Source of the DNA: Candidatus Aenigmatarchaeota archaeon
GTDB taxonomy: Archaea; Aenigmatarchaeota; Aenigmatarchaeia; CG10238-14; SCSR01
Direction of reading: 5' to 3'
DNA: 64,000 nucleotides
Assembly: GCA_039091335.1 (NCBI GenBank)
Contig: JAWCME010000002.1
Coordinates: forward strand, 8,735-72,734
Position 1 is the stretch's first letter; every line of letters starts with the position of its first letter. The position numbers and the translations under genes were made by a program. The notes beneath the pieces were generated by a model, which saw nothing but the letters and a program-made list of their open reading frames with translations, searched no databases and had not been told where the DNA came from. Shown piece after piece: positions 15,935 through 63,540 of the stretch.

Positions 15935-16024
15935 GCCCCCGTAGCTCAACTTGGATAGAGCAGTGGCCTTCTAAGCCATTGGTTGCGGGTTCAAAAGCTT
16001 AGACTGAAATTCCCGTCGGGGGCA
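15935..16024 (+). tRNA. tRNA-Arg(UCU) with a 15-nt intron in the T-loop
   Basis: Hand-folded cloverleaf. Acceptor GCCCCCG/CGGGGGC, D arm GCTC/GAGC, anticodon arm GTGGC-CTTCTAA-GCCAT, T stem GCGGG/CCCGT. The T-loop is 22 nt instead of 7. Confidence 0.9.
15996..16010 (+). other. BHB intron at tRNA position 59/60
   Basis: The T stem forms the outer helix. Central helix TTCA(15990-93)/TGAA(16005-08), bulges AAA(15994-96) and ATT(16009-11). Excision leaves TTCAAAT. Confidence 0.8.
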
Positions 16025-16104
16025 CTTCCAAAAAATCGATTTTTAGGGAATTCTAAGATACATGTAAAGTTTATTACCTTTCAATAAACAATATTAATGT
16101 GTAA

Positions 16105-16878
16105 ATGACAAGGGTTATAAACATAGCATCAGGAAAAGGTGGGGTGGGAAAGACAACTTTAACTACAAATTTGGCATATGCCCTGGCAAAAATGGGTCAA
16201 GATGTTACGGTTGTGGACACAAACCTAACCACACCAAACCTTGGTATACATCTTGGTTTATATTTAGCTCCAAATAATTTGCAGGGAGTGCTAAAAGGAG
16301 ATACTAACCTTAAAGATGCAATATATCCACATACATTTGGGTTTAAGGTAATTCCAGCTGGTCTTGGAATAGATAGTTTGATTGGAGTAGACCCATCCAG
16401 ACTATACGAAGTACTTTCCGGATTGTTTGGAAAAACGGATTATGTAATATTGGACTCTGCACCTGGTTTGGGAAGGGAGGCTATTTCTTCCATAAACGCT
16501 TGTGAAGAAGTTTTGATCGTAACAAACCCGGATCTTCCAAGTATTATAGATGCATTAAAAGTTTCGAGGATAGCTATCAATACAGGGAAAAAAATAATTG
16601 GTGTTGTTGTAAACAGGAGAAATAAAAGACGAGATGAGTTTAGTTCAAATAGAATAGAAAACATTCTTGGAATTCCTATATTGGCAGAAATTCCAGAGGA
16701 TAAAAATATACCAAAAAGCATAATGTTAAAAAGGCCTGTGCTGGAAGTTTTTCCAAATTCACCATCATCAATAGAAATAAAAAGACTTGCATTCAAAATA
16801 CTTGGAATTGAGGGAGGATCAGAATTTAGAGGTAAGCTTGGTCTTCTTGGAAGAATGGTAAAATGGATTACCGGATGA
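16105..16878 (+). CDS. MinD/ParA-family P-loop ATPase
   Basis: Deviant Walker A SGKGGVGKTT and MinD-like length. Confidence 0.85.
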   Translation: MTRVINIASGKGGVGKTTLTTNLAYALAKMGQDVTVVDTNLTTPNLGIHLGLYLAPNNLQGVLKGDTNLKDAIYPHTFGFKVIPAGLGIDSLIGVDPSRLYEVLSGLFGKTDYVILDSAPGLGREAISSINACEEVLIVTNPDLPSIIDALKVSRIAINTGKKIIGVVVNRRNKRRDEFSSNRIENILGIPILAEIPEDKNIPKSIMLKRPVLEVFPNSPSSIEIKRLAFKILGIEGGSEFRGKLGLLGRMVKWITG

Positions 16879-18511
16879 AGTTAAGTAAGGCCTCCAAATC
16901 AATCTCAAAGCATGATACGGGCATTTCAATTTTCCAGTTTTCTATAACCTCTGGATGGATTTCACCAAACATTCCAACTTCTTTTCCGTTGATTTTAACT
17001 AGGCAGCATCTTCCATCAATAAAAGAGGGATGGGAAAATTCTTCAATATTAAAATTAAGACCCAAACTTTTAATCAAGCTTTCAACCACTCCCTTTACTT
17101 CAGAGAAACTTGATTTGGAATGACAAATCGTACATCCAACCTTTCTTATAGTTTTTGTTAGTACCTCCTCGTTTTCGTCCATAACAACAACATCGCCAAT
17201 TTCAAATATGTTTTGAGGATATTCCACATGCTTGTTCAAAGACAATACTTTTAAAAGGCTTGGTATTATCCAAACTCTAAGGCAATTATACTCTTCAGAT
17301 ACAGGGTTTTCTATTTCTATTGCCTCTCCTTTTAACCTCATCTTATCGAATTGGTCAAAAAAATTTGTGAGAGTTGGTCTTAGAACTTCAATGAAACCAA
17401 AACCAACCATAAGATTCCTAATTTTTTCACAAAAATTTTCAAGCGGTAGGTCAAGTCCAACAGTTGCCAAGTTTGGCATTTCTGGTATCAAGTTATTATA
17501 ACCATAAGCTATTGCCACATCTTCTACTATATCAACAGAATGAAGTATGTCATTCCTATAACAAGGAATTATTACGTTTATCTTCTTTCCTTTCTTCTCA
17601 ATAGTTCCATATCCCATTCTTTCTAAAAGCATGCAAATTTCTTTTTTGCTCAAATTCAAACCTATTAACTTATTCACAAAATCAGTATCAATCTCCATGT
17701 TTTCCTCTTCCAATACTGGTGTTTTTTCAGCTTTCTTTCCGTACTTTACCTTTACAGCTTCAACTCTACATCCCCTATCAATCAAGTTAGTAACCAATAT
17801 GTTTAGGGTTTGAAGAGTTGACTTCTTCTCGGTTCCTGTTACTTCAACAAACATAGATTTCGTCCCTTCTTTTATTCTTGTGCGCTCAGAATTTAATATC
17901 GGTGGAAAACTGAATATTCCCTTAGAATCGACATATACAGGGAATTCCCCAGAAAGAACATGAGCAAATTCAATTCCTTTTTGGGTGTTTGTTAGCACTT
18001 CCTTCAGGCTCATTTCCTTTTTTTCCCCAAGAGGTAAAAATTTTGCTTCTGGGCTTGCGGTTTTGTAGGAGATTGGTGGTTCTATCTTTTCAAGGTCATG
18101 AATTCCGATAGCAACCCTTTTCCTATTTCTTCCAATAGTTTCATGCAATGCTTCTTGTATGTTCATAAGGCTTCTTATTAGTTCATCACTAAGCTTCACA
18201 TTCTTAACTATGGCACATGCAATATATGGCCTACTTTTAACTTCCCCAACCATCACCTCTGTTTTTGCCTCCTCTACATGGTATTTTACTAATCCTGTTT
18301 CAATCCCTAAGAAATACCTTATTGCTCTTGCCAGTCCTTCTATTCCAAAAAGGTCTGCTCTGTCGGGTGTTAGTTCAACTGTTATTTCATTTTTCTCAAT
18401 TTTTTCTACATTAAGTTTTATCATATTTATAGCTTCTTCTATCTCTTTTTCTGTTATGTCCTTTCCTATTAGCTTGATCAAATCTTTTTTATCATAAGTT
18501 AGTGTTGGCAC
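16868..18511 (-). CDS. pheT: phenylalanyl-tRNA synthetase beta subunit
   Basis: Archaeal PheT pattern. A GTG at 18511-18509 gives the typical MPTLTYDK N-terminus and overlaps the pheS TAG stop by 1 nt (TAGTG). The track start TTG 18541 lies inside pheS. Confidence 0.9.
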   Translation of the reverse strand: MPTLTYDKKDLIKLIGKDITEKEIEEAINMIKLNVEKIEKNEITVELTPDRADLFGIEGLARAIRYFLGIETGLVKYHVEEAKTEVMVGEVKSRPYIACAIVKNVKLSDELIRSLMNIQEALHETIGRNRKRVAIGIHDLEKIEPPISYKTASPEAKFLPLGEKKEMSLKEVLTNTQKGIEFAHVLSGEFPVYVDSKGIFSFPPILNSERTRIKEGTKSMFVEVTGTEKKSTLQTLNILVTNLIDRGCRVEAVKVKYGKKAEKTPVLEEENMEIDTDFVNKLIGLNLSKKEICMLLERMGYGTIEKKGKKINVIIPCYRNDILHSVDIVEDVAIAYGYNNLIPEMPNLATVGLDLPLENFCEKIRNLMVGFGFIEVLRPTLTNFFDQFDKMRLKGEAIEIENPVSEEYNCLRVWIIPSLLKVLSLNKHVEYPQNIFEIGDVVVMDENEEVLTKTIRKVGCTICHSKSSFSEVKGVVESLIKSLGLNFNIEEFSHPSFIDGRCCLVKINGKEVGMFGEIHPEVIENWKIEMPVSCFEIDLEALLNFIR

Positions 18512-20019
18512 TATATCACCAGTTCTTTGTTTCTTAACCAATTCAAGTCGTCTGAATAAAGATACCTTATATCCTCAACACCAAGCCTAACCATTGCCAT
18601 CCTACCAATACCAAGTCCCCATGCTAAAACTGGTACTTCTATTCCAAGAGGAACTGTTACTTCTGGCCTAAAAATACCAGCACCACCAAACTCGAACCAA
18701 CCAAGCTTAGGATGATAAGCTATACCTTCTACACTCGGTTCTGTAAATGGGAAGAAGGATGGCTTAAACCTAACTTTTTCTACTTCCATAATAGCTACTG
18801 CTATTTCCTTAAGGAAGCCCAAAAGGTTCCTTAAGTTTAAGTCTTCTCCCACAACTATACCTTCGCAATGTTCAAACTCTATGAAGTGCTTAGCATCTAT
18901 CACATCTGGCCTGAATACTCTATCTATCATAAACATTTTATGAGGCAGTTTCTTTCCTTTTAACGAATAAAGTGTTCTTGAAGATACAGCGGTTCCATGA
19001 CTTCTTAGTATAAGTCTTCTTGCAAGATCAAAGTCCCAGTTTCCCCAGCCTTTACTTCCTGTTATCCATCCATTTTTGTGTGTTTCTTCAACCCTCTCCC
19101 ACAACTCTTTATCCAGAACTTTCCCAAATTTTATGTTTTTGACAGTATATATGTCGTGAACACTTCTAGCAGGATGGTCAGACGGCATAAATAAGGCATC
19201 ACAATTCCAAAAATTTAGCTCAACAAAAGGTCCTCTTGCTTCCACAAAACCAAGACCAATAAGTCTTTTCCTTATTTTGTCTATGATTTGTCTGTACGGA
19301 TGAATTTTTCCAGGATAAATTTTTGGTGCGGGAAGGAAAACGTCATACTTTCTAATCTTTTTATTTTTCCACTCTCCAGTTTTGATAATTTCTGGAGTAA
19401 GTTGACCAATTTCTTCAACTACTTCCTTTAACTTTTCAGACAAGCTTTTTCCAAGCTCGGAAAGAAAGAAGTTCCTTTCTACTTCAACTACTTTTTTAAT
19501 TATTCCCCTTTTGATAAAATCTTCAACAAGCCCTATATTTTCTACCTCTTCTATTCTATGCCTTCCTACCATCAATCTTTTGATCAATTCTTCTCCTTCT
19601 GTAATCATTCTTACTGCTTTTTCCCCAGCATCCGTTAAAAAAATTTTTCCTTCCTTTATCTCAATCCATCCGTTCTTCCTTGCCCAAATTATTCCTATCT
19701 CAGCCCTTTCAATCTTGTCTTTAATTTTCGAAATTTCATTTATTCCAGAATCTATTGCTTGAATAAGATTTTTTTCTGGAAGTCCATACCTTACATATTC
19801 TATTCCCTCTTCTGTCAATTCTAGGAATTCAAACTTAATTTCTTCTGTTTCCAAAATACCTTTAGCTCTTGCCCAAAGACATGCTCTTTCTATTTCATCC
19901 TTTTTAAGTCCGCTCTCTTTGGATATTTCTTCGACCCCCGTCTTTCCTAAAACCATTAAAGCCCTTACTACCTTTTTCTCGTTTTCATGCAGTTTTTCTA
20001 TCAATTCTTCAACTCCCAT
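18511..20019 (-). CDS. pheS: phenylalanyl-tRNA synthetase alpha subunit
   Basis: Class II motifs: HPARS, FRPDVIDAKHFIEFEHCEG, FPFTEPS, GAGIFRPEV. Confidence 0.93.
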   Translation of the reverse strand: MGVEELIEKLHENEKKVVRALMVLGKTGVEEISKESGLKKDEIERACLWARAKGILETEEIKFEFLELTEEGIEYVRYGLPEKNLIQAIDSGINEISKIKDKIERAEIGIIWARKNGWIEIKEGKIFLTDAGEKAVRMITEGEELIKRLMVGRHRIEEVENIGLVEDFIKRGIIKKVVEVERNFFLSELGKSLSEKLKEVVEEIGQLTPEIIKTGEWKNKKIRKYDVFLPAPKIYPGKIHPYRQIIDKIRKRLIGLGFVEARGPFVELNFWNCDALFMPSDHPARSVHDIYTVKNIKFGKVLDKELWERVEETHKNGWITGSKGWGNWDFDLARRLILRSHGTAVSSRTLYSLKGKKLPHKMFMIDRVFRPDVIDAKHFIEFEHCEGIVVGEDLNLRNLLGFLKEIAVAIMEVEKVRFKPSFFPFTEPSVEGIAYHPKLGWFEFGGAGIFRPEVTVPLGIEVPVLAWGLGIGRMAMVRLGVEDIRYLYSDDLNWLRNKELVI

Positions 20020-20049
20020 TTATAAAAATATTTTTATTGCAAGTATAAA

Positions 20050-20286
20050 TTAAACAACCCTCCACCCATTATCATTTTTCTCTACAGGAAGTTTTTTTAA
20101 TATCCTTCCCACATTAAACGGATTAATTTCTATTCCATTTCTTTTCAATATTTCTGATATTTCTGTTGCAGTATAGTATTTTCTATTCGTACCACATAAC
20201 TCTTTAAGTGTTTTATACACCATCTCCACAATTTTTTCATAACCAAACTTATTTATAATTTCTCTTTCTTTTTTGTTGTATCTCAT
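20050..20286 (-). CDS. small winged-helix protein
   Basis: 78 aa. A strong SD AAAGGAGGGAG sits 4 nt upstream of its ATG, inside the upstream ORF. Confidence 0.4.
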   Translation of the reverse strand: MRYNKKEREIINKFGYEKIVEMVYKTLKELCGTNRKYYTATEISEILKRNGIEINPFNVGRILKKLPVEKNDNGWRVV

Positions 20287-20509
20287 TTTCTCCCTCCTTT
20301 AAAAAATTTAAAAAAATTATCCCAAGGTTTGTGATTTTTACAGGAATTCCCTTGTTTTTTTGATCACCACATTCTATGATACCAAGCTCTTTAAGTTTTT
20401 TGGCATTCCACCTCAATGTAGATTCTGGGATGTTATGTTTTTTAGAAATTTCATACAAGAGCGAAGTAATGGTTATATTTTTCCATTTTATCATTTCGTT
20501 TAATATCAA
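20249..20509 (-). CDS. small HTH protein
   Basis: 86 aa with an HTH-like segment, ISKKHNIPESTLRWNAKKLKELGII. Start may be the internal ATG (MIKWKN...). Confidence 0.4.
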   Translation of the reverse strand: MILNEMIKWKNITITSLLYEISKKHNIPESTLRWNAKKLKELGIIECGDQKNKGIPVKITNLGIIFLNFLKEGENEIQQKRKRNYK

Positions 20510-20651
20510 AATCCCATGCTTATTAATTACTCTAAGGAAAATGTTACTTAACTTCTTGGAAGAAATTGGTATGGCATCTTAATTAATTTGTGTTGTATTA
20601 TTTATAAAGATAATGCGCAAATTTTATTGCAGTTATAAGAGAAAAAGTAAA

Positions 20652-21359
20652 TTACCTAACTGGTGTGTAAAAATTCTTATATGTCCTTCCTGTTAGAAAA
20701 TAGGTTAATGTAAAAAAAATATATTTATAGGCGGTTTTAATTCTTCCCCATTTTTCAAATCTTCTAACAGAATTAAAGACTAAGATTTTTTCTTTAAAAA
20801 CGATTTTTCCAACCTTTGAGATTCTTTTGGATAAATCTAAATCTTCATCAAAATATAAATTTTCATTAAAGCCACCAACACTTTTAAAGGCGTCCTTTCT
20901 GTAGGCACAAAAAATTCCTGGAATACAGGGGGTTTTTAAAAATATAGAGAACTTTATAAAGTTGTTAATAAACCAATAGATAAGATAATCGATTATCTTA
21001 TTGCTAATTGGTAAAATTAGGCAAGCCACGCCAACCACTTCCTTTTTTTTAAAAACTTTGGCTAACTCGCTTAAGGTATTGTATAGTATTAGTGTATCCG
21101 CATCAACAAAAACCAATATATCCCCTTTTGCGACAGATGCTCCGGCATTCCTGCCTACTGCAGGGCATTTCTTCTTCGTAATAACTATTTTATTAGCATA
21201 CTTTCTGGCTATTTTAAGAGTGTTGTCTCTGCTTCTTCCATCAGACACTATTATTTCTACCTTTCCTCCATAGTCTTGATTTTTTATACTTCTTAATGTA
21301 GCCTCAAGATATTTTTCTTCGTTATATGTTGGGACTATTACTGAAATTAGCGGTTTCAT
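20652..21359 (-). CDS. family 2 glycosyltransferase
   Basis: ISVIVPTYNEEKYL and DADT motifs. Confidence 0.8.
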   Translation of the reverse strand: MKPLISVIVPTYNEEKYLEATLRSIKNQDYGGKVEIIVSDGRSRDNTLKIARKYANKIVITKKKCPAVGRNAGASVAKGDILVFVDADTLILYNTLSELAKVFKKKEVVGVACLILPISNKIIDYLIYWFINNFIKFSIFLKTPCIPGIFCAYRKDAFKSVGGFNENLYFDEDLDLSKRISKVGKIVFKEKILVFNSVRRFEKWGRIKTAYKYIFFTLTYFLTGRTYKNFYTPVR

Positions 21360-21432
21360 AATTTTTTATTAATCTCATTAAAAACTTTAAATATTATCTA
21401 AATTAGCAAATAAAACTAAATTATCTGGTAAT

Positions 21433-22557
21433 TCAATCTCTTAACATAAATTTATCAATTTTATTTTTTGCGTCCTCCCTTTTTTTTTGATGTTCTTTGA
21501 TGAATTTTTTTATCCTTTCCGAAAGAATTTCTTTGCACTCACCACACAACCTATTTCCTTTTTTACAATCTTCAAAAATTTTTTGCACTTTTTTATCATC
21601 TTCTTCAAATAAAAAGTAATAGTACTGATAAACTGGGCATAATTCAGGGTTTCCACCCTTCTCCTTCTGCTCTTTTATTGTCGGTTGTCCAGCATCAAAG
21701 GCATTCATCACCTTTCTTTCAATTTTTTCTTCTGTGTCAGATGTAAATATAGCTGTTTCTGGTTCGCTCGAGCTCATCTTTCCTCCTTTTCCTAATCCAG
21801 GAAAGAACTTAGAGTGGATTTCTGCTGGCTTATAAAAATTCAGTTTTGGTGCAACATCCCTTGCCATCCTCCAGTAGGGAGATTGGTCTATTGCCGCAGG
21901 TATAAGACAGGGTATATTCTTTCCTTTTAATACTGAAGGAAGAAAGCAAGGAACCGCCTGAATTGCTGGGAAGAAAACAATTCCTATGTTTGAAGTATTT
22001 TTAAAACCAAATATTGATTTTACAGTAGAAAATGTAACATGTTTTGCAATTTGTATAGCAATCTTATACTGCGTTTTTGCATATTCTGTATTAGAGAAAA
22101 TAAACGTTTTTTTATAGTCAAAGTCACATGCTATGACATCTAGAACATTGTCATAAGTATAACCAATAGTATCTTGAAGGCTAAGCTCGGGCTTAACTAA
22201 AAACTTTTCATCATCTGTCATTTGAAAATACAACTCTGCATCAAATTTTTTTTGTAGCCAACTTGTGAATATCCAAGGTATTAAATGTCCTATGTGTGTG
22301 TGCCCAGAAGGTCCTCTTCCTGTATAAAGAAAAAATTTCTCTCCATTTTCATATCTTTCCAATATCCAATCCATATCTCTGTGAGAGAAAAATATTTTTC
22401 TTCTCAAAAGAAAATGAAGTTCTTTCGTATGTTTCTTTATTCTTTCCAAAAGTTCATCTGTTATTCTTTTTACGCCAAACTCCTTTATCAGTTTTTCATA
22501 ATCTACTTCTCCCCTAACTTCCCAAGGAGTTACTAAAAACTTTTTTTGTTTTATCAT
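21433..22557 (-). CDS. trpS: tryptophanyl-tRNA synthetase (archaeal/eukaryal type)
   Basis: TPWEVRGEVDYEKLIKEFG N-terminus, HIGH (GHTHIGH) and KMSSS. Confidence 0.9.
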   Translation of the reverse strand: MIKQKKFLVTPWEVRGEVDYEKLIKEFGVKRITDELLERIKKHTKELHFLLRRKIFFSHRDMDWILERYENGEKFFLYTGRGPSGHTHIGHLIPWIFTSWLQKKFDAELYFQMTDDEKFLVKPELSLQDTIGYTYDNVLDVIACDFDYKKTFIFSNTEYAKTQYKIAIQIAKHVTFSTVKSIFGFKNTSNIGIVFFPAIQAVPCFLPSVLKGKNIPCLIPAAIDQSPYWRMARDVAPKLNFYKPAEIHSKFFPGLGKGGKMSSSEPETAIFTSDTEEKIERKVMNAFDAGQPTIKEQKEKGGNPELCPVYQYYYFLFEEDDKKVQKIFEDCKKGNRLCGECKEILSERIKKFIKEHQKKREDAKNKIDKFMLRD

Positions 22558-22622
22558 AGCTTATTATTCATTTTGTTTTTAAATTTAAAAATTAAAAATA
22601 TTTTAATTTACTTGGTGATTGT

Positions 22623-23066
22623 TTGGCTGTATTTAAGTTGGTAGTAAGCGAACCAGAAACAAAGAAGAGTTATCAGTTAGAAGTAGAGCAGAGTAAAGTT
22701 CAGTCTCTAATCGGAAAAAAAATTGGAGAAGAATTTCCTGGAGACCTTATTGGTTTAAATGGCTATATGTTAAAGATTACAGGAGGAACTGACAAGGATG
22801 GCTTTCCCATGCACCCATCTGTTTCTGGAATGGGAAGAAAAAAAGTTTTGTTGTCCTCTCCACCCTGTTTTCATCCAAGGTTAAAGGGGGAGAGAAGGAG
22901 AAAAACGGTAAGAGGAAACACAATAAGCGAAGATATAGTCCAAATAAATGTTAAGGTTACAAAAAAAGGAGAAAAGCCTTTAGAGGAATTAATCCCTGTT
23001 AAGCCCAAAGAAAAGAAAGAAGAGGAAAAAACAAAAGAGGAGATAGAAACAAAAACAGAAAAATAA
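22623..23066 (+). CDS. rps6e: ribosomal protein S6e
   Basis: MAVFKLVVSEPETKKSYQLEV pattern. TTG start preceded by SD GGTGAT (22614-22619). Confidence 0.9.
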   Translation: MAVFKLVVSEPETKKSYQLEVEQSKVQSLIGKKIGEEFPGDLIGLNGYMLKITGGTDKDGFPMHPSVSGMGRKKVLLSSPPCFHPRLKGERRRKTVRGNTISEDIVQINVKVTKKGEKPLEELIPVKPKEKKEEEKTKEEIETKTEK

Positions 23067-23127
23067 ATTACAAATAAAAATTTCATCTTTATTTTTATTT
23101 ATTAGAAAATATTTGAAGGGGTGATGA

Positions 23128-24373
23128 AAAGTAACAAAAGAGATTAATCCAAAGCTAATACCTAAATGTAACATAGGTATGGTCGGACATTGCTAAAGCA
23201 ACCGAAAACGTTGCGCATGGAAAGACAAGCCTAGTTGAAACAATTACTGGAAAGTCAACACTAATGCATTCTGAAGAATTGAAAAGGGGAATTACAATTC
23301 GCTTGGGTTATGCGGATGCAAAAATTTACAAATGTATAAAATGTGGAAAATATTGTTCAAGCGAAAAATGTCCTTTCTGTTTTTCTGATTGTGAGCTTCA
23401 AAGAACAGTAAGTTTTGTGGACGCCCCTGGACATGAAACTTTAATGGCCACAGTTTTAACTGGTGCTGCATTAATGAATGGGGCGATTCTTGTGATTGCA
23501 GCAAACGAGAAGTGTCCTCAGCCGCAGACTCGTGAGCATCTTACTGCTTTGGAAGTCGTTGGAATTAAAAATGTGATAATAGTTCAAAGCAAGATAGATT
23601 TGGTTACAGAAGAAAGGGCATTGGATAGCTATAAAGAAATAAAAGAATTCATTAAAGGAAGTAGCATAGAGAATTCCCCAATAATACCGGTTTCCTCTAA
23701 ACAGAGAATAAACATAAGTTCAGTTATAGAGGCAATAGAGGAATTCATTCCAGACCCGGAATTAGATGAGAAAAAAGAACTGAGAATGCTTGTTGCAAGA
23801 AGCTTTGACATAAATAAACCTGGTACAAGCCCGGAAAAGCTTGTTGGTGGGGTTTTGGGTGGAGCAATAATTCAGGGAAAATTAAGAGTTGGGGAGGAAA
23901 TTGAAATTAGACCAGGTGTAATGGTCGGCTCAAAAAGAATTCCGCTTTTTACTCATGTTTTAGGGATTAAAAAATCGAATATAGAAATGGAAGAGGCTGG
24001 TCCAGGAGGTTTGCTTGGGGTATTAACTGGCTTAGACCCATTTTTAACTAAGTCTGATTCTCTTGTGGGAAGTGTGGTTGGTCTTCCAGGAAAAATTCCA
24101 GAAACAAGAGAGGAGTTAAGAATAAATGTTAATTTACTTGAGAGAGCAGTTGGTTCAAAGGATTTGAGCGCAATATCTCCAATTAAAATAGGAGAAGAGC
24201 TTATGATAAACGTAGGAACAGCACGATCTATAGGAAAGGTTAGCTCAATTAAAAAAGATTATATTGAATTAAAACTTAAAATACCAGTATGTGCTGAGGA
24301 AAAAGAAAGGATAGCGATTTCTAGGTCAATCCTTGGAAGATGGAGGCTTATTGGTTGGGGTGTAATAAAGTAG
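23128..24373 (+). CDS. eif2g: translation initiation factor aIF2 gamma, interrupted by a 19-nt intron
   Basis: Exon 1 (to 23188) encodes ...KLIPKCNIGMVGH. Exon 2 (from 23208) encodes VAHGKTSLVETITGKSTLMHSEELKRGITIRLGYA..., and the track ORF 23264-24373 is only its distal part. The 5' end has no standard in-frame start codon (see findings). Confidence 0.9.
23189..23207 (+). other. BHB-type intron in the aIF2-gamma pre-mRNA
   Basis: Central helix TCGG(23183-86)/CCGA(23202-05), bulges ACA(23187-89) and AAA(23206-08), inner helix TTGC/GCAA with loop TAAA. Removal restores GHVAHGKT in frame. Confidence 0.75.
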
Positions 24374-54999: not shown

Positions 55000-55739
55000 T
55001 CACTTAATTTTTTCCGTCTCTTCTCTACTTAACTTTCTAAATTTTCCATCCTTTTCTATTATTGCAATATCTATACTCTCTTCTTTTCCAATTTTTTCTG
55101 ATTTTGATAGAATATCAATTGCAAGTCTTATTGCTTCCTTTCTGTCCATTCCCTCCCTCCATTTCTGTCTCAATGTTTTGTTTGCTAGCGTCCCACCCCT
55201 TCCTATGCCGTATGCCTTCCACTCATAAAGCATACCAGAAGGATCTGATTCTATTAGATGCGCTCCAGTTTTGTCAACACCTCCAATAAGAATGGTTGTT
55301 CCAAAGGGTCTTAGTCCTGCATATAATGTGGAGAGTTGCATTCTATCACCTATTGCCCTTGCAATACCCCAAACATCTATAGGTTCTTCATAGGTTATTT
55401 TATGTACTTGTGCCTTTATTCTTGCTTGGTTTATCAAAACCCTAGCATCAGCTAACAACCCAGCTGAGACAGAACCTATGTGTTCATCTATCTGGAATAT
55501 CTTCTCCACGGATTCTGAAACGATTAATGTGCCTGTTGGCTTTATTGTTGCAAGTAGCACACCGTCCTTAAAGATAATTCCAAGGCAAGTTGTTCCTCTT
55601 TTGACAGCTTCTTTTGCATATTCTACTTGAAATAGTCTTCCGTCTGGGGAGAAGACAGCAATTGTTCTATCATAACCCATATGAGCAACCTTCAGCTATT
55701 AGCTGAAGGTTAATACTCTGGAAGTATTTGTGGTGGCAT
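55000..55739 (-). CDS. psmA: proteasome alpha subunit, with a 9-codon first exon and a 32-nt intron
   Basis: Exon 2 (55680-55000) is the track ORF, MGYDRTIAVFSPDGRLFQVEYA.... Exon 1 (55739-55713) is ATG CCA CCA CAA ATA CTT CCA GAG TAT, preceded by SD GAGGTGAT. The spliced product begins MPPQILPEYMGYDR.... Confidence 0.85.
55681..55712 (-). other. BHB-type intron in the psmA pre-mRNA
   Basis: On the minus strand: central helix GAGT(55718-15)/GCTC(55686-83), bulges ATT(55714-12) and ATA(55682-80), 10-12 bp inner palindrome, 4-bp outer helix. Confidence 0.75.
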
Positions 55740-55744
55740 TATTC

Positions 55745-55752
55745 ATCACCTC
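55745..55752 (-). promoter_or_regulatory. Shine-Dalgarno element for psmA exon 1
   Basis: GAGGTGAT lies 5 nt upstream of ATG 55739. The same GGTGAT-type element precedes rps6e and other genes here. Confidence 0.5.
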
Positions 55753-55815
55753 ATTTTTCTCCTAATCATAATAATCAATTTATTTTTATTAGTTTTTCAT
55801 GTTTTAAAATGTATG

Positions 55816-56579: not shown

Positions 56580-57292
56580 CTCACTATCTTTACTCCAGGC
56601 ATAATCCATTTTTCATCCTTCCTCTCTTCAATCATCTTAATAATATTACTTGGAATATTTGTTATTGCATCCTTTGCTTCTTTATATTCTAGGCCAAGCT
56701 GACAAGCCATTGATACCAAGCATTCTGGGGCCCTAAGTTCCCAGCAAGATATTGCACCAGAGCAAAGTATTATTTTTGCACCAAACTTTTTTGCTAAAAA
56801 AACATTCTGTGCAATATTTTTTAATACGATACTCCTATTCCTTTTTGTAGATAGAAGAATTTCTCTAAAGTTTATTTCTATTGCTACATTATTCTCTGCA
56901 GCCAGTCTTACTGAAACATGGTCAAGCCCGGAATCATTTCTATTGTATTCGGGATGTGTCAAAATATCAACTTCTGGCGTCCCACACGCCTTTCTGTTTA
57001 AATTTAAATCCCCTCCTCTTGCCAGTAGAATATCAAACTCTCTTCTTCTATTTGCTAATTGTATCAATTCCTTTATGTTTCTGGCTTCAAAACCTAGTAG
57101 AATTTTTATTTTGGTTTTTTCTTCAACTCTTTTGATTTCAGCTTTTAATATTTCCTCCTCTTCCTTTCTAAGAGGATAAGAAGTAAAACAAATTCCACAA
57201 TATCCCAATTCTTTTGCCATGGACGCCAATTCTTCTAGGCTAGACTCACCACCTGAGAATGCACTATGTACATGTAAGTCATACGCCTTCAT
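56576..57292 (-). CDS. rnp3: RNase P protein component Rpp30 (Rnp3), PHP fold
   Basis: MKAYDLHVHS N-terminus and family length. Confidence 0.8.
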   Translation of the reverse strand: MKAYDLHVHSAFSGGESSLEELASMAKELGYCGICFTSYPLRKEEEEILKAEIKRVEEKTKIKILLGFEARNIKELIQLANRRREFDILLARGGDLNLNRKACGTPEVDILTHPEYNRNDSGLDHVSVRLAAENNVAIEINFREILLSTKRNRSIVLKNIAQNVFLAKKFGAKIILCSGAISCWELRAPECLVSMACQLGLEYKEAKDAITNIPSNIIKMIEERKDEKWIMPGVKIVR

Positions 57293-57326
57293 AATTATCT
57301 TGGTTTTGTTTTAAACTTAAATTTGA

Positions 57327-57830
57327 CTACTTTTTTCTTGATTTTTTGGCAGCAGCAGTTAATCCCCTTAAAGCCCTTTTTCTATGTGCAGGTAGAGATA
57401 TCCAATTAATCTTTGGGTCTTTAATTATATTTGGATTTTTAGGGTCTACAAGCAAACATTCAAACCATTTATACATACCATCTTCACCCACATAGTAGCT
57501 TCCAATTACTTCAAGGTTCGGGAATTTTCTGTTCGCTTTCTGTTCGGCTATTGCTTGTAAAGATTGTTTTGGTGTAAATTTTACTAGTCCTGACTTCGAC
57601 GGTTTCCTTCCTCTCCTTCCATAAAGTTTTCTCCTTCTTCCTCCCTTCCTTACTTTTACTCTAGCTACTACATATCCCTTCTTGGCTTTATATCCCAATT
57701 CCCTTGCTCTATCGAGACGAGTTGGCTTTTCTATTTTTTCTACTGTATGCTGCCTTCTCCATTCTATTAATTTTTCCTTTAACTCTTTCTTCCAATTTTC
57801 CTTTATATAATGATACATTCCTTTGACCAT
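57327..57830 (-). CDS. rpl15e: ribosomal protein L15e
   Basis: [11 protein letters not shown]...[16 protein letters not shown] pattern. Confidence 0.92.
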
Positions 57831-57889
57831 GGTTTCACTTTACATTAACTTTATATATATTACAGATTAAATTGTTTTAAAGGTGAAGT

Positions 57890-58138
57890 ATGCATCCAAT
57901 AGGTAAAATAATAGTAGGAGCAATCCTGATGATAGGTAGTGTATACTACATTTTCCGAGGAATACCAGGTATGTTTGAACCAGCACTTCCTGCTTTGATA
58001 GTAGTATTAAATGGAGCAATTCCACCATTCGTTTTCCTTATAGGACTTTTCATAGTATGGCTAGAATTAGACGAGCTTAGAATAGAGAGGGAACTGAAGC
58101 AGGAAGAAAAGAAGGCAAGAGCAAAAAGAAAGAGATAA
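57890..58138 (+). CDS. hypothetical small membrane protein
   Basis: 82 aa with two TM helices and a charged tail. SD-like AAAGGTGAAGT lies before the ATG. Confidence 0.35.
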   Translation: MHPIGKIIVGAILMIGSVYYIFRGIPGMFEPALPALIVVLNGAIPPFVFLIGLFIVWLELDELRIERELKQEEKKARAKRKR

Positions 58139-58187
58139 GTCCTTTCATTTTTAAATTTTATTAGTACTATTTTTTAAAGGTAAGTTT

Positions 58188-59213
58188 ATGGGTATTCAGC
58201 TAACAGGAATTATTCCAAAAAAAGAAATAGATTTGAATTCTCTTTCTGGAAAAAAAATTGGAATAGACGGGTATAATGCAGCATATCAGTTTTTAAGCAT
58301 TATTAGGCAAAGACCAACAGGAGAATTTCTAAGGGATTCGAAAGGAAACATAACCTCTCATCTAAGTGGAATATTCTATAGGACTGCAATACTTATAGAG
58401 GCAGGAATAAAGCCTTTATATGTTTGGGATGGAGAACCACCAGAATTCAAGAAGAGAGTTGTGGAAGAAAGAGTTGAAAGAAGAGAAGAGGCAAGAAAAA
58501 AATGGATGGAAGCATTAGAAAAGGGAGAAGAGGCAATGCCATATGCTCAGGCCGCAGTAATGCTTACAAAAGAGATAATTGAAGAATCAAAGAAACTTTT
58601 GGAATACATGGGTATACCTTCTATTCAAGCAAAAAGCGAAGGTGAAGCTCAGCTTGCGTTTCTAGCGAAAAAAGGAGAAATATGGGCATCAGCTTCTCAA
58701 GACTGGGACAGTATTTTGTTTGGTTCGCCAAGACTTTTAAGGAATTTATCAATTACAGGGAAAAGAAAACTTCCAAGAAAAGAAGTATACATAGAAATTA
58801 AACCAGAGATAGTAGAGCTTGATTTTGTTCTCTCGAGTTTGGGGATAACAAGAGAACAACTTGTTATGATTGGAATTTTAATAGGGACAGATTATAATCC
58901 CGGGGGGGTTGAGGGGTTTGGACCAAAAAAGGCCTTAAGCCTTGTAAAGGAATGTAAAAGTTTGGATGAAATACTTAAAAGGATAGAATGGAAGTTTGAA
59001 GTTGGGGCTGAAGATATATACAACTTCTTTATGCACCCACCTGTTAATGAAAAATATAAAATACAATTTAAAGAGCCGAACAAGGAAAAGATAATTGAAT
59101 TTATGGTAGAAGAGCATGACTTTTCAAGAGAAAGGGTAGAAAAGGTGGTTGATAAGCTTCAGCAATCCTTTGCTACAGGAACACAGGCTAGTTTGAAAGG
59201 ATGGTTAAAATAA
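58188..59213 (+). CDS. fen: flap endonuclease FEN1
   Basis: MGIQLTGIIP...GKKIGIDGYNAAYQFL, GEAQLA and H3TH (IGTDYNPGG) motifs. Confidence 0.93.
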   Translation: MGIQLTGIIPKKEIDLNSLSGKKIGIDGYNAAYQFLSIIRQRPTGEFLRDSKGNITSHLSGIFYRTAILIEAGIKPLYVWDGEPPEFKKRVVEERVERREEARKKWMEALEKGEEAMPYAQAAVMLTKEIIEESKKLLEYMGIPSIQAKSEGEAQLAFLAKKGEIWASASQDWDSILFGSPRLLRNLSITGKRKLPRKEVYIEIKPEIVELDFVLSSLGITREQLVMIGILIGTDYNPGGVEGFGPKKALSLVKECKSLDEILKRIEWKFEVGAEDIYNFFMHPPVNEKYKIQFKEPNKEKIIEFMVEEHDFSRERVEKVVDKLQQSFATGTQASLKGWLK

Positions 59214-59236
59214 ATTTAGAAAGATAAATTATTTTC

Positions 59237-60736
59237 ATGGAATTAGAAAAAATAATCTCTATCGCAAAGTCAAGAGGGTTCTTTTGGCCATCTTTTGAAA
59301 TCTACGGAGGAGTTGCTGGGTTTTGGGACTATGGTCCACTGGGATGTGTTTTAAAAAGGAAGTTTGAAAATTTTTGGATAGATTTTTTTGGAAAAAAAGA
59401 GGGGTTTGTAGAAGTAGAGACACCATCTTTAATGCCAAAAGAAGTTTTTGTTGCTTCTAAACATTTAGAAAAATTTGTAGATCCGATAACGAGATGTAAG
59501 AGATGCAACTCAGTATACAGGGCAGACCACCTTATTCAAGAAAAGTTAAAGTTGAGTAAAGAGGAAACAGAAGGTCTTAGTTTGGAAAAGCTTTCGGAGA
59601 TCATAGAAAAAAATAAGATAAAATGCAAATGTGGTGGAGAGTTAAGAAAAGTAGAATTTTTTAACATGATGTTTAAAACAATTGTCGGGACTCAGAAAGA
59701 ATTTTTTCTTCGTCCAGAAACAGCACAAGGCCAGTTCTTATGTTTCAAAAGGGTTTTTGAGTTGCAAGGAAGGAAACTTCCTCTTGGAATAATTCAAATA
59801 GGGAAAGCTTTCAGGAATGAAATATCCCCTAGACAGGGAATAATAAGGCTAAGAGAGTTTACCCAAGCCGAGGCAGAAGTATTCTTTGATGAGGAAGAAA
59901 TTAATGAGTTTGAAAAATTTGAAGAAATAAAAGATTATGAGTTGAATTTGTTCACACTTAAAAACAGGAAAGAAGAAAAAATTTTAAAAATTAAAGCAAG
60001 TGAAATAGTTAGAAAAAAAATATTGCCAAAGCTTATTGTTTATTTTATGGCAAAAGTCCAACAATTTTTTGAAATTCTTGGCATTCCAAGAGAAAGTATG
60101 CGTTTCAAGGAAATGTCGAATGAAGAAAAACCGTTTTATACAAGATACGCTTGGGACCTTGAAATATTTACCAAAGCATTTGGTTGGGTTGAGTGCGTCG
60201 CAAACAACTACAGGACAGACTGGGATCTTTCTGGTCATATGAACATGAGCAGAGAAGATTTAAGGGTTTTTAAAGATGGAAAAAAATTTTTACCCCATGT
60301 TTGGGAAATTTCTTTTGGTATTGATAGACCAATCTACTGTCTTTTTGAGCATTGGCTTACAGAAATTAAAGATAGGGTTGTGTTGAGAATTCCTCCGAAA
60401 CTTGCTCCATTTGATGTAGCCGTTTTTCCTTTGGTTGCAAAGAACGGTCTTAACGCAAAGGCAAAAGAGGTTTTTAAACTACTTTTTGAAAGAGGGTTTA
60501 ACGTGAAGTATGAAGAAAAGGACTCAATAGGAAGAAGGTATTATAGGGAAGATATGGGAGGTACGCCGTATTGTGTTACTGTAGATTATGAAAGCATGGA
60601 AAAGGAAGATGTAACAATAAGAGAAAGGGATTCAAGTGCACAAGTGAGGGTTAAAATAAAGGATTTACCTGAAATTCTTAGAAGATTGTTAGAAAAAGAG
60701 TTGGAGTTTAGTGGTGCTGGAAAAACACTAGGTTGA
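59237..60736 (+). CDS. glyS: glycyl-tRNA synthetase (archaeal/eukaryal alpha2 type)
   Basis: RGFFWPSFEIYGGVAGFWDYGPLG, FRNEISPR and GIDRP motifs. Confidence 0.92.
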   Translation: MELEKIISIAKSRGFFWPSFEIYGGVAGFWDYGPLGCVLKRKFENFWIDFFGKKEGFVEVETPSLMPKEVFVASKHLEKFVDPITRCKRCNSVYRADHLIQEKLKLSKEETEGLSLEKLSEIIEKNKIKCKCGGELRKVEFFNMMFKTIVGTQKEFFLRPETAQGQFLCFKRVFELQGRKLPLGIIQIGKAFRNEISPRQGIIRLREFTQAEAEVFFDEEEINEFEKFEEIKDYELNLFTLKNRKEEKILKIKASEIVRKKILPKLIVYFMAKVQQFFEILGIPRESMRFKEMSNEEKPFYTRYAWDLEIFTKAFGWVECVANNYRTDWDLSGHMNMSREDLRVFKDGKKFLPHVWEISFGIDRPIYCLFEHWLTEIKDRVVLRIPPKLAPFDVAVFPLVAKNGLNAKAKEVFKLLFERGFNVKYEEKDSIGRRYYREDMGGTPYCVTVDYESMEKEDVTIRERDSSAQVRVKIKDLPEILRRLLEKELEFSGAGKTLG

Positions 60737-61075
60737 TTTTCCTCTATATATTTTTGCAAAATTTGGTGTTATTATTAAAAAGTCTTCGTCAACTCCTGCT
60801 ATATCTCCGTTCATCGCTAAACATGTTTTCCTAAGCTTATCAACGCTTCTTTTAAGTTCTGTTATGTCTTTTTGTCTTATTTCCCTTATTTTTAGGAATA
60901 TTATGTTACCTTCTCTGAGCATTTTTTGTATTCTTTCTGTATCTGCATAATCCCTAAGATTTTCTATCTTTATGTTTATTTTTTCTTCTTCTGGTACAGG
61001 CTCTACTTCAACAAACTCCTCCTTCTCTTCCTTTGTTCTCCTCTTAAGCAAATCTTTAAGAGCCATTTCAATCAA
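60728..61075 (-). CDS. sepF: SepF-like cell division protein
   Basis: C-terminal domain pattern LRDYADTERIQKMLREGNIIFLKI...GDIAGVDEDFLIITP. Confidence 0.65.
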   Translation of the reverse strand: MIEMALKDLLKRRTKEEKEEFVEVEPVPEEEKINIKIENLRDYADTERIQKMLREGNIIFLKIREIRQKDITELKRSVDKLRKTCLAMNGDIAGVDEDFLIITPNFAKIYRGKST

Positions 61076-61102
61076 TATTAATTATTTTTTAAAATTAAAA
61101 AA

Positions 61103-61357
61103 TTAGCTTATTTCCCTCCTTTTTTCTTCTAGTATGCTTACAGCATTCCATATCTTTGTTCTAGCATAGACCGGCATGTTTGGGTCGTTTATTATTTCGT
61201 CTAGGATATGAATTGCTGTACTTATTTTTACTTCTAGAGATTCTTTACTATTCAATACATTTTTTGAATCTTCTGCAGCCTTTCTTATGTTCTTTGGAAC
61301 AGTTTTATCGTTTATTATTTGATCCAAAAATGAGATTGCTTTGGTTATTTCTTCCAT
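61103..61357 (-). CDS. UPF0147-family protein
   Basis: DKTVPKNIRKAAE...ILDEIINDPNMPVYARTKIWN pattern. Confidence 0.7.
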   Translation of the reverse strand: MEEITKAISFLDQIINDKTVPKNIRKAAEDSKNVLNSKESLEVKISTAIHILDEIINDPNMPVYARTKIWNAVSILEEKRREIS

Positions 61358-61402
61358 AACATCACTTTATATAAAATTAATTAAATGAAGACTAAAAAAT
61401 TA

Positions 61403-61738
61403 TCAAATTTTTTCCCTTATTTTTGTTTCTAATTCTTTCAGCTTTTCGTTTGTTTTTGCTTCGCTTTTCTCTAAACTTTTTATTCTTATTTCTATAGATT
61501 CTTTTGCTTCACTAAGCTCCTTTTTAAGTTCTTCAACGGGCTTTTTTATCATTACCTGCCCAGCAATTTTATATGCTTCATTTTCCTTTGTTTTGTTTAA
61601 CTCTTCAAGCGCCCTCTCTATCTCAAAAATTTGCATGTTTAAACTTTCTTTCTGTAGCAGTATTGTTTGAAGTTGCTGTTGATAAGCCTGAAATTGTGTT
61701 ATCATATTTTTTGTTTCTTCAGACATCTCTTCTGGCAA
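61403..61738 (-). CDS. pfdB: prefoldin beta subunit
   Basis: QFQAYQQQLQTILLQKESLNMQIFEIERALEEL coiled-coil pattern. Confidence 0.85.
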   Translation of the reverse strand: MPEEMSEETKNMITQFQAYQQQLQTILLQKESLNMQIFEIERALEELNKTKENEAYKIAGQVMIKKPVEELKKELSEAKESIEIRIKSLEKSEAKTNEKLKELETKIREKI

Positions 61739-61769
61739 AAAATCACCACATATTATTTAATTGTATAAA

Positions 61770-61926
61770 CTATATAGATTCAACCCTTTTTATTACTTCT
61801 GGTCTCGTTTTTGCCAAAATTCTATGGGCCCTGCTTGCTTTAAAGCAAGCAAGTAAACCCGCAATATGGACATCTAATGTTTTCTTCCACATTCACAATT
61901 TTCTTACATTTTACACACTTATACAT
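61770..61926 (-). CDS. rpoP: RNA polymerase subunit P (Rpo12/RpoP), interrupted by a 31-nt intron
   Basis: Exon 1 (61926-61855) encodes MYKCVKCKKIVNVEENIRCPYCGF. Exon 2 (61823-61770) encodes RILAKTRPEVIKRVESI*. Unspliced, the frame stops after CPYCGFTCLL. Lies between rpl37ae and pfdB and is absent from the track. Confidence 0.8.
61824..61854 (-). other. BHB-type intron in the rpoP pre-mRNA
   Basis: On the minus strand: central helix GGGT(61860-57)/GCCC(61829-26), bulges TTA(61856-54) and ATA(61825-23), 9-bp inner helix CTTGCTTGC/GCAAGCAGG with loop TTTAAA. Confidence 0.75.
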
Positions 61927-61927
61927 A

Positions 61928-62146
61928 TCACTCCCCCTTTAAGTAATATGCTGGACCAGCAAACTTTAAACCGCATTTTTTACATTTCCATATTCCACAA
62001 GCAACCCTTTTAACATATGGTAAATTACACTTTGGACAAACATATCTTTTTCTTTCCTCCTTTTCAATCTTAGACACAGTTAGTCTAATCTTCCTTCCGT
62101 ATCTTGTCCCAAACCTTCCTGCTGAGCCAACCTTTTTCTTAGCCAT
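61928..62146 (-). CDS. rpl37ae: ribosomal protein L37ae
   Basis: [11 protein letters not shown]...CPKC...CKKC zinc ribbon. Confidence 0.92.
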
Positions 62147-62407
62147 TTATTTCACTATTCTGAATTCTTTTTTCCCCTTTATGTTTTCCAGTATCTTTAT
62201 TAACATCCCTTCCGTTATTTCGTTTTTTATTTTTCCTGTTTGAAAAAGCTGGATTAGATACAACTCCACTTGTGCGGCAAGTTCTGGTTTTACCATCCTA
62301 ACTCTACCGAGCCTTTCTAATGCTTCCTTTGAAAGTATTTTTTTCATCAAAATTCTTTTTAGTTCTTCAATTTTTTTCATCTCCTCTATGCTGATTTCTT
62401 CGTTCAC
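62147..62407 (-). CDS. PDCD5-like DNA-binding protein
   Basis: ILSKEALERLGRVRMVKPELAAQVE pattern. Confidence 0.75.
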   Translation of the reverse strand: MNEEISIEEMKKIEELKRILMKKILSKEALERLGRVRMVKPELAAQVELYLIQLFQTGKIKNEITEGMLIKILENIKGKKEFRIVK

Positions 62408-62820
62408 TCCTTGCTCACCTCAAACGCTATTCTGTCTAGAAGTTTTTTCCCCTTGTTTGTTATTACTCTTCCCCCCCTTTCTTTTTTCAAAAGTCCAGCC
62501 CTTTCAAGCTGTTGTAAGATCTTTCTTATTATATTTCCAGAGGCTTTTCTAAACTGTGGTGGGCGATGCCCCCTCCTTTTTCTCCCCCCGTAATATGTTC
62601 TTAATCTTTCAACGCCGACTGGACCATCAATATAAATTCTTCTGAGAATGGATGCCGCTCTAATATACCAAAAGTCTTTTTGAAATGGAGGTCTTTCTTT
62701 ATGAGATCCTGACTTTACGAAATTTGCCCAGTGAGGCGTAGATATTTCTTTAAAAAGTTTAAGTTCCTCCTTTAACTTATTCACGAGTTTATGTGGGTTT
62801 ACTTCCCTTGCTGTTACCAT
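62404..62820 (-). CDS. rps19e: ribosomal protein S19e
   Basis: VTAREVNPHKLVNKLKEELK...YIRAASILRRIY pattern. Confidence 0.92.
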   Translation of the reverse strand: MVTAREVNPHKLVNKLKEELKLFKEISTPHWANFVKSGSHKERPPFQKDFWYIRAASILRRIYIDGPVGVERLRTYYGGRKRRGHRPPQFRKASGNIIRKILQQLERAGLLKKERGGRVITNKGKKLLDRIAFEVSKE

Positions 62821-62859
62821 AAAATATAAATTTAAATTTTATTTATTAAAGGGTTTGTG

Positions 62860-63096
62860 TTAGGCAGAGAGCATTATATAACTTGTCAAGCATATTATTA
62901 TTATAAAACCACTTAGGATAAGAAGCACAATCAGCATAGAAAAACTAAAAGAATTGAATTTTTTACACGTTTCTGGAGGGTTATTGCCCTTACATACTTC
63001 TGAAAATTTTACTATGTTGTCGAAAACAAAAAATAGCATGATTGTAGCGATGAAGACTGTTAATAGTCCAAAACCAACATGGGAAAAAGCCTTCAT
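62860..63096 (-). CDS. hypothetical small membrane protein
   Basis: 78 aa with two TM helices. Overlaps the rnp4 stop by 4 nt. Confidence 0.3.
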   Translation of the reverse strand: MKAFSHVGFGLLTVFIATIMLFFVFDNIVKFSEVCKGNNPPETCKKFNSFSFSMLIVLLILSGFIIIICLTSYIMLSA

Positions 63097-63392
63097 TTTT
63101 TCACCAAATATCTATAAATTTTTTTACAGTTTGAACACTTAACTGTAACGTATCCATTCTCAATTCTAATTGTTGAAGATATTCCTGGAATTAGAAAACT
63201 ATTGCATTCTTTACAAAATTTTCTCTTTAATTCTTTCTTTAATCTTACATTGTACCTTAGTCCAATTTTTCTTGCAAGTTCTACGTATCTTCTACTCCTT
63301 TCAGGATGTTTTTTTAATTCTTTCTCTGCAAGGTTGAACAATATTTCAATTCTTTCTTTAGCTATTTTTTTTGTCCAGGCAGCTTTTTTCAT
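63093..63392 (-). CDS. rnp4: RNase P protein component Rpr2/Rpp21 (Rnp4)
   Basis: ERIEILFNLAEK...RRYVELARKIG...CKEC...CSNC zinc ribbon. Confidence 0.8.
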   Translation of the reverse strand: MKKAAWTKKIAKERIEILFNLAEKELKKHPERSRRYVELARKIGLRYNVRLKKELKRKFCKECNSFLIPGISSTIRIENGYVTVKCSNCKKIYRYLVKK

Positions 63393-63472
63393 CTAATAAT
63401 AAATTGTTTTAAAATAAATTGAGTAAAGAATAAAAATGGGTCCGACCGGATTCGAACCGGTGACCTCCGCCG

Positions 63473-63484
63473 TTCTGATACATT
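63473..63484 (-). other. tRNA-Val intron 2 (canonical position 37/38)
   Basis: The 12 nt AATGTATCAGAA. Central helix CTGA/TCAG, bulges CGA and AAC. The anticodon stem forms the outer helix. Confidence 0.7.
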
Positions 63485-63492
63485 CGTCAGGG

Positions 63493-63505
63493 TTCCGCTC
63501 TCTCT
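63493..63505 (-). other. tRNA-Val intron 1 (position 29/30), relaxed BHB
   Basis: The 13 nt AGAGAGAGCGGAA. Central helix ACGT/GCGG has 3 pairs plus an A-G mismatch. Bulges CGA and AAC; 4-bp outer helix TAGG/CCTG. Confidence 0.55.
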
Positions 63506-63540
63506 CGACGTCCTACCACTAGACCACGGACCCAACTTTA

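Follow-up and report, generated by a model that had tools for sequence, protein, structure and literature searches.

Putative bulge–helix–bulge introns in tRNA genes and essential protein-coding genes of an Aenigmatarchaeota genome

The pre-mRNA of cbf5 in Crenarchaeota contains a bulge–helix–bulge (BHB) intron (Watanabe 2002; Yokobori 2009, PMC2738675). In the literature through 2025, it is the only BHB intron cited from an archaeal coding sequence, alongside a single Haloferax intron located in a 5' untranslated region. The latter, in HVO_1309 of Haloferax volcanii, has been demonstrated experimentally, and its removal is needed for expression (PMC7714728). Non-canonical and multiple tRNA introns have been described in Thermoproteales, DPANN and Asgard archaea (PMC5829648, PMC11291895). 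Several DPANN lineages possess α4-type EndA endonucleases with an extra L3 loop, which are associated with disrupted tRNA genes (PMC5829648). A literature search for introns of Aenigmatarchaeota, also called Aenigmarchaeota, found nothing relevant. Here, we present an analysis of six short inserts in a 64,000-nucleotide stretch of DNA (the window; 33% G+C) from a member of the Aenigmatarchaeota (DPANN). The inserts interrupt two tRNA genes and the protein genes aIF2-gamma, rpoP and psmA. They are very probably archaeal BHB introns, cut by EndA and joined by an RtcB-type ligase.

The inserts in the protein genes resemble the cbf5 intron in that they are short BHB elements within open reading frames (ORFs), their removal restores the frame, the cut is presumably made by EndA, and their gain and loss among relatives is patchy. 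However, the cbf5 intron affects a single gene of TACK archaea, which have a heterotetrameric EndA, whereas here three genes are interrupted within 64 kb of a DPANN genome. Furthermore, psmA of the relatives has four or five recurrent insertion sites, with up to three introns in the first ~30 codons. As in HVO_1309, an mRNA would be the substrate of the tRNA-splicing endonuclease, which in our case is deduced from sequence; the HVO_1309 intron is located in an untranslated leader and rests on experiments, whereas the present ones are coding. The tRNA inserts have in common with the introns described from other archaea the T-loop position 59/60, the position 29/30, the occurrence of two introns per tRNA, and the mini size. 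Relaxed motif forms with one flanking helix (HBh' and hBH), as found here, are typical of lineages whose EndA has specificity-broadening loops (PMC5829648, PMC11291895). Those reports cover tRNAs only, whereas in the window the architecture is shared between tRNA and mRNA hosts. In eukaryotes, the HAC1/XBP1 mRNAs are spliced by IRE1 together with RtcB or Trl1. There, too, a small intron leaves a coding mRNA without a spliceosome, by cuts at paired stem-loop sites, followed by joining by a tRNA ligase and a change of frame. However, HAC1/XBP1 splicing employs IRE1 instead of EndA and is regulatory and stress-induced. The kind of element, an archaeal BHB pre-mRNA intron, is already known; the lineage, the host genes and the density are new.

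The six inserts are all present at the positions given by the original prediction, and the three in mRNAs were located by motif search plus reading of the sequence. The mRNA inserts are 19–32 nucleotides (nt) long and each resides in an essential protein gene: aIF2-gamma (19 nt), rpoP (31 nt) and psmA (32 nt). The tRNA inserts are located in the T-loop of tRNA-Arg (15 nt) and at positions 37/38 (12 nt) and 29/30 (13 nt) of tRNA-Val. In the BHB model, the elements follow one another from 5' to 3' as h1-H(4 bp)-B1(3 nt)-h2...h2'-H'(4)-B2(3)-h1', where H pairs with H' in a helix of four base pairs (bp), h1 and h2 belong to the outer and inner flanking helices, and each bulge (B) lies 3' of its helix strand. 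The cut falls after the second nucleotide of each bulge. It had been proposed that one such rule fits all six inserts. Two 3-nt bulges on opposite strands with a 4-bp helix between them are indeed formed by five of them, but not by the 13-nt insert of tRNA-Val, in which ACGT and GCGG remain unpaired. The canonical 37/38 intron of tRNA-Val calibrates the cut position inside the window, so that the tRNA cases serve as an internal control for the mRNA cases, as had been suggested. In the same register, helix H is perfect or contains one G-U pair in aIF2-gamma (TCGG/CCGA), rpoP (GGGT/GCCC), psmA (GAGT/GCTC) and tRNA-Arg (TTCA/TGAA). For these four inserts, cutting after the second bulge nucleotide yields products equal to those of intron-less orthologues.

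The flanking helices vary among the inserts. Both are formed in psmA, which has the strict hBHBh' motif, whereas only the inner helix is present in aIF2-gamma and rpoP (HBh'), and only the outer helix in tRNA-Arg and the 37/38 insert of tRNA-Val (hBH). The original description of weak outer helices in all three mRNA introns does not apply to psmA, whose outer helix comprises 4 bp. The minimum-free-energy folds of all three mRNA segments are exactly the BHB structures, with z-scores of −5.3 for psmA, −3.6 for rpoP and −0.3 for aIF2-gamma, whose hairpin is short. When unspliced, each of the three mRNAs has an in-frame TAA at the end of exon 1 or shortly after it: psmA has it in the next codon, aIF2-gamma two codons further, and rpoP five. 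The bare compact BHB motif has 1170 matches in the window, compared to ~855 in shuffled sequences, and a ranking of the window matches by the inner helix places psmA and rpoP first. Bare matches are frequent in AT-rich DNA, so that counting them proves little, and the weight rests on the products and the relatives. In our analysis, what exceeds chance is the exact repair of frame and motif together with the comparative data.

According to the proposed mechanism, the pre-tRNA or pre-mRNA transcript would include the insert. The 4-bp helix between the two 3-nt bulges would arise by pairing of the last exon-1 nucleotides with the intron's 3' end. EndA, as a dimer or tetramer, would cleave each bulge behind its second nucleotide, and the exons would be joined by a ligase of the RtcB type. 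With the in-frame TAA and the frameshift removed from the three mRNAs, aIF2-gamma would regain its P-loop, RpoP its zinc-ribbon tail, and PsmA its N-terminal gate segment. To our knowledge, EndA cleavage followed by RtcB ligation is the sole process that acts on such geometry in both tRNA and mRNA.

The aIF2-gamma gene (23124–24373, plus strand) consists of exon 1, which extends to position 23188, a 19-nt intron (23189–23207), and exon 2, which starts at position 23208. The BHB core (23183–23208) has the sequence TCGG aca TTGC-TAAA-GCAA CCGA aaa, where aca and aaa are bulges B1 and B2, and the outer helix is reduced to ~1 bp. At the junction, exon 1 ends with GGTCGGAC, the intron reads ATTGCTAAAGCAACCGAAA, and exon 2 begins with ACGTTGCG. 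The spliced protein reads ...NIGMVGHVAHGKTSLVE and is 68–75% identical to uninterrupted homologues, with which it shares the invariant MVGHVAHGKTS. GHVAHGKT is the P-loop variant of the lineage itself and is contiguous in the closest homologues. The original prediction had anticipated mis-annotated genes, and these exist in public data: among the 120 best aIF2-gamma protein clusters, eight begin in the translated intron or right after it (P0068, P0071, P0078, P0090, P0113, P0115, P0119 and P0120). Examples of the translated intron are ...KATEYVSHGKT and the start of P0071, LEWSDIGDKPTEYVAHGKT.... The DNA of P0071 reads TCGG aca TTGG-TGATAAA-CCAA CCGA ata at the identical site, which makes this entry a read-through of the intron.

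Metagenome contigs were searched for aIF2-gamma introns of relatives with an intron-agnostic pattern, composed of the exon flanks and a 12–34-nt gap. The 54 matches included six distinct intron-bearing loci (L001/L102, L085/L134, L099, L109, L131 and L133), all with the intron at the same site; the remainder were chance matches or an uninterrupted gene. In the alignment of the window sequence with these six loci, the intron is 19–22 nt long, and the positions of H and of the bulges are fixed. The inner helix occurs in the variants TTGC/GCAA, TTGG/CCAA, TTAC/GTAA and CCGC/GCGG. All 56 cells of the alignment are paired, and double changes are found in each of the four inner pairs. The covariation score is 0.357, compared to 0.146 for shuffled alignments, none of 500 shuffles reaches it, and the pairing collapses when the partner strand is slid. 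Helix H is invariant and uninformative for covariation. The G+C-rich intron CCGC-TCCTT-GCGG of locus L109 (7373–7421) has the same H and bulges, and here the structure is conserved, not the sequence.

The start of aIF2-gamma requires one further correction. Window positions 23122–23135 contain an in-frame TGA TGA, and the ATG of position 23124 belongs to the other frame. An N-terminus like that of the homologues, MKVTKEINPKLIP, requires ATG AAA GTA, whereas the DNA reads ATG AAA A GTA, a 1-nt frameshift in a run of four A that is not associated with a BHB motif. The extra A may be a sequencing error, a +1 frameshift site or a slippage site. A GTA start codon was considered and dropped, as locus L001 has an upstream TTG start.

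The rpoP gene (61770–61926, minus strand) is composed of exon 1 (61926–61855), a 31-nt intron (61854–61824), and exon 2 (61823–61770). Its BHB core (61823–61860) reads GGGT tta CTTGCTTGC-TTTAAA-GCAAGCAGG GCCC ata. Helix H (GGGT/GCCC) has one G-U pair, tta and ata form the bulges, the inner helix of 9–10 bp is closed by an A/U-rich loop, and the outer helix comprises ~1 bp. Exon 1 ends with GGGTTT, the intron extends from ACTTGC to GCCCAT, and exon 2 begins with AGAATTTTG. The spliced RpoP of 41 amino acids, IRCPYCGFRILAKTRPEVIKRV, contains CPYCGFRIL, and at least 15 relatives encode a contiguous CPYCG[YFA]RI..K.RP. The spliced protein passes the cut-off of Pfam family PF03604 (27.8 versus 24 bits), whereas the read-through product has no match. 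Among the relatives compared, the rpoP intron is seen only in the window. The suggested kinship of the aIF2-gamma and rpoP hairpins finds no support: the likeness is limited to 4 bp and an A-rich loop, too little for an evaluation, and relatives differ in the aIF2-gamma helix itself.

The psmA gene of the proteasome alpha subunit (55000–55739, minus strand) is formed by exon 1 (55739–55713), which encodes MPPQILPEY, a 32-nt intron (55712–55681), and exon 2, which starts at position 55680 and encodes MGYDRTIAVFSPDG.... The hBHBh' motif (55676–55722) reads GAGT att AACCTTCAGC-TAATA-GCTGAAGGTT GCTC ata, with outer helix TCCA/TGGG, helix H GAGT/GCTC containing one G-U pair, and bulges att and ata. 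The inner helix has 10 bp and is capped by the loop TAATA, and the centroid structure is the BHB. Exon 1 ends with CCAGAGTAT, the intron extends from TAACCTTC to TGCTCAT, and exon 2 begins with ATGGGTTAT. The spliced PsmA starts with MPPQILPEYMGYDRTIAVFSPDG, and ~35 related loci encode a contiguous M-P-x-x-[LMF]-P-E-Y-M-G-Y-D-R-T, as exemplified by MPQILPEYMGYDR of L007. The Shine-Dalgarno-like sequence GAGGTGAT precedes the exon-1 ATG (55739) and not the exon-2 ATG (55680). Translation of the unspliced mRNA would produce a 9-amino-acid peptide terminated by the TAA in the 5' bulge. A product initiated at the exon-2 ATG would be devoid of the N-terminal segment. In other archaea, the N-terminal segment of the alpha subunit gates the channel of the 20S proteasome.

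In a scan of GTDB genomes, we inspected the first ~30 codons of psmA in ~55 DPANN loci. Ten loci besides the window carry inserts (L013, L014, L016, L017, L032, L040, L045, L046, L048 and L068). These ten genomes contain 18 inserts of 29–37 nt, located at PE/Y (L032 only), EY/M, DRT/I, AV/F and QV/E, all of which are in or beside the Proteasome_A_N signature. Three introns each are found in L040 (33, 31 and 32 nt; 10001–10150) and L048 (32, 31 and 37 nt; 9280–9440), and two each in L013, L032 and L045. Two or three mini-introns within ~30 codons is an unusual density for an archaeal protein gene. None of ~26 euryarchaeal (non-DPANN) outgroup psmA loci has an insert.

For 13 psmA inserts, that of the window included, the boundaries were set by the peptide-restoring deletion alone, and every restoring boundary was listed (1–4 per insert). 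Twelve of the 13 have one boundary with all four H pairs formed, always in the register that cuts after the second bulge nucleotide. The alternative boundaries give 0–3 pairs, except for an implausible 48-nt candidate at the ambiguous N-terminal insert of L013. With a background of ~2% per boundary and about three boundaries per insert, the probability of this outcome is ~1e-13. The three introns of L040 and the two of L045 were resolved by eye and fit the rule, but the second L045 intron has 3/4 pairs. Both L013 introns also form 3/4 H pairs. An apical GTTAAT/ATTAAC loop is present at different sites in 8 of 19 introns of the psmA/rpoP class, compared to 1.8 expected by shuffling (P ~6e-4), and its carriers are psmA introns of L013, L016, L040, L045 and L048. 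The recurring loop suggests that the introns are related or mobile, or that the loop is bound by a partner.

The tRNA-Arg(UCU) gene (15935–16024, plus strand) has a 15-nt intron (15996–16010) at T-loop position 59/60. Its BHB reads GCGGG TTCA aaa GCTTAGAC TGAA att CCCGT, where the T-stem GCGGG/CCCGT serves as the outer helix, TTCA/TGAA is helix H, aaa and att are the bulges, and there is no inner helix. Alignment with the intron-less tRNA-Arg genes of L051–L053 has a gap of exactly 15 nt, between TTCAAA and TCCCG of the T-arm. The tRNA-Val(GAC) gene (63437–63533, minus strand) contains two inserts, one of 12 nt at position 37/38 (63484–63473) and the other of 13 nt at position 29/30 (63505–63493). 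The BHB of the former reads CTGA cga ATGTA TCAG aac, in which positions 32–35 (CTGA) pair with intron TCAG, and the bulges are CGa and aaC. A 5-bp anticodon stem with a U33 loop is obtained only if 13 nt are removed after position 29 and a further 12 nt from the loop. The 12-nt removal has six workable placements, and the canonical 37/38 one is that which fits the BHB. After both removals, the arm reads TCGCC-CTGACGC-GGCGG with the valine anticodon GAC. ARAGORN and Rfam confidently found one tRNA, that at 63437–63533, which was mis-typed, and the tRNA at 15935 was below the threshold. The ARAGORN label Pro(CGG) was rejected, as the anticodon is GAC once the two inserts are removed. An Rfam near-match to HPnc0260 at 63333–63469 is merely the antisense of tRNA-Val. 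We found no tRNA-Val homologue in the fetched related loci.

The 13-nt insert AGAGAGAGCGGAA (63493–63505, minus strand) is purine-rich and lies within the 5' strand of the anticodon stem of tRNA-Val. Its would-be H (ACGT) does not pair with H' (GCGG), although its removal is still required for the 5-bp anticodon stem. No BHB that gives the right product was found for it, also after removal of the other intron and with alternative partners. The cgg of the insert can pair with T27–G29, mimicking the 3' strand of the stem, which would place the 5' cut at the end of a 3-bp helix and the 3' cut 2 nt beyond that helix.

The mRNA inserts might instead remain in the message and be skipped by programmed translational bypassing, in which, as in phage T4 gene 60 and the mitochondrial byp elements, the ribosome hops over a gap that contains a hairpin. 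There is a superficial resemblance to gene 60, as the mRNA inserts form short stable hairpins and an in-frame stop lies at or near the end of each exon 1. However, at none of the three junctions is there a matched pair of take-off and landing codons that gives the conserved product. The same architecture and cut rule are present in two tRNA genes, where translation is irrelevant, and the relatives exhibit constraint on the 4-bp exon–intron helix and the 3-nt bulges, which bypassing does not need. We therefore regard bypassing as extremely improbable.

Another explanation, which we consider very unlikely, is that the inserts are small palindromic DNA insertions, akin to miniature inverted-repeat transposable elements (MITEs) or repetitive extragenic palindromic (REP) elements, and that the genes are pseudogenes or are expressed from the downstream ORF only, such as psmA from the ATG at 55680. 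Exon 2 of psmA has an initial ATG of its own, the unspliced ORF is intact at 226 amino acids, and the recurrence of the GTTAAT-type loop at different sites hints at spread. Nevertheless, psmA exon 1 encodes the exact lineage consensus MPxxLPEY, in the frame that is restored by the BHB cut alone, and without splicing aIF2-gamma would lose the context of its P-loop and rpoP its C-terminal half. Both flanking exons are under strong purifying selection, with psmA introns in at least 10 species and aIF2-gamma introns in 7 sequences, and all host genes are essential and normally single-copy. The chance that sequencing or assembly artefacts, or strain chimeras, produced the inserts is close to nil: a probable 1-nt error or frameshift does exist in the window, at the start of aIF2-gamma, but independent assemblies of different studies have structured 19–37-nt inserts at the same codons, and L085 and L134, which come from two samples, have identical introns.

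Splicing of BHB introns by EndA and an RNA ligase, present in tRNAs and mRNAs under one rule, is supported by the match of the products, the covariation in aIF2-gamma, and the 12 of 13 psmA inserts. Several observations weigh against it. Neither EndA nor RtcB is encoded in the window or the fetched related loci, where a tblastn search with one EndA probe gave no match. The BHB rule is not absolute, as the 13-nt tRNA-Val insert and three psmA inserts of relatives (both of L013 and the second of L045) have only 3/4 H pairs or no BHB. A strict α4 enzyme might refuse aIF2-gamma and rpoP, which are without an outer helix. The unexplained 1-nt correction near the aIF2-gamma start means that the window may contain some sequence error. 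The genome presumably encodes EndA and an RNA ligase, because tRNA introns are present.

The window comprises roughly 75 genes, among them archaeal translation, exosome, RNase P and proteasome genes. An exact-sequence look-up returned no record for the window proteins. The closest relatives of the spliced aIF2-gamma are 65–75% identical to it, and several are named Candidatus Aenigmatarchaeota; the top psmA loci among GTDB genomes belong to metagenome-assembled genomes (MAGs) of Aenigmatarchaeota. Among relatives, the introns recur at conserved sites and their presence is patchy, with the intron found in 8 of the 120 best aIF2-gamma clusters, in ~11 of 55 psmA loci, and for rpoP in the window only. 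A further scan, over 0.96 Mb of related loci, looked for compact BHBs whose excision would yield a junction peptide that other genomes conserve. When side-specific identity and at least 6 supporting loci were required, the scan, which is blind to short terminal exons such as those of rpoP and to neighboring or clustered introns, returned the psmA and aIF2-gamma introns only. Its first version, without side-specific identity, gave many false positives, and a scan of related loci for small inserts at breaks between tblastn high-scoring segment pairs was swamped by noise from antisense ORFs. Pfam checks of adjacent same-strand ORF pairs identified no further split genes in the window. The defensible extent is three introns among the ~75 window genes, together with hot-spot genes across the phylum. 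Splicing of mRNA by tRNA-splicing enzymes looks routine in this lineage, and genome-wide pervasiveness is beyond what 64 kb can be used to judge.

We tentatively speculate that Aenigmatarchaeota, and perhaps neighboring DPANN lineages, harbor a population of mini-BHB introns that are related to one another and perhaps mobile, and that are repeatedly located in the most conserved codons of essential protein genes. Splicing of the mRNAs would then be obligatory and could be regulatory, for example by deciding whether the proteasome alpha subunit has its N-terminal gate segment. For more than 20 years, the intron of cbf5 in Crenarchaeota has been the only accepted archaeal coding-sequence intron, and the window and its relatives add at least three essential genes, sometimes with several introns per gene. 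If confirmed on RNA, the finding would expose a systematic annotation error, in which aIF2-gamma entries start with translated intron, short genes such as rpoP are missed, and marker-gene estimates of completeness are affected. It would also widen the known substrate range of DPANN EndA enzymes and provide a natural system in which to follow how protein-gene introns are gained, lost and possibly mobilized in the absence of a spliceosome. Gene expression in some archaea would then regularly involve mRNA splicing by the tRNA machinery.

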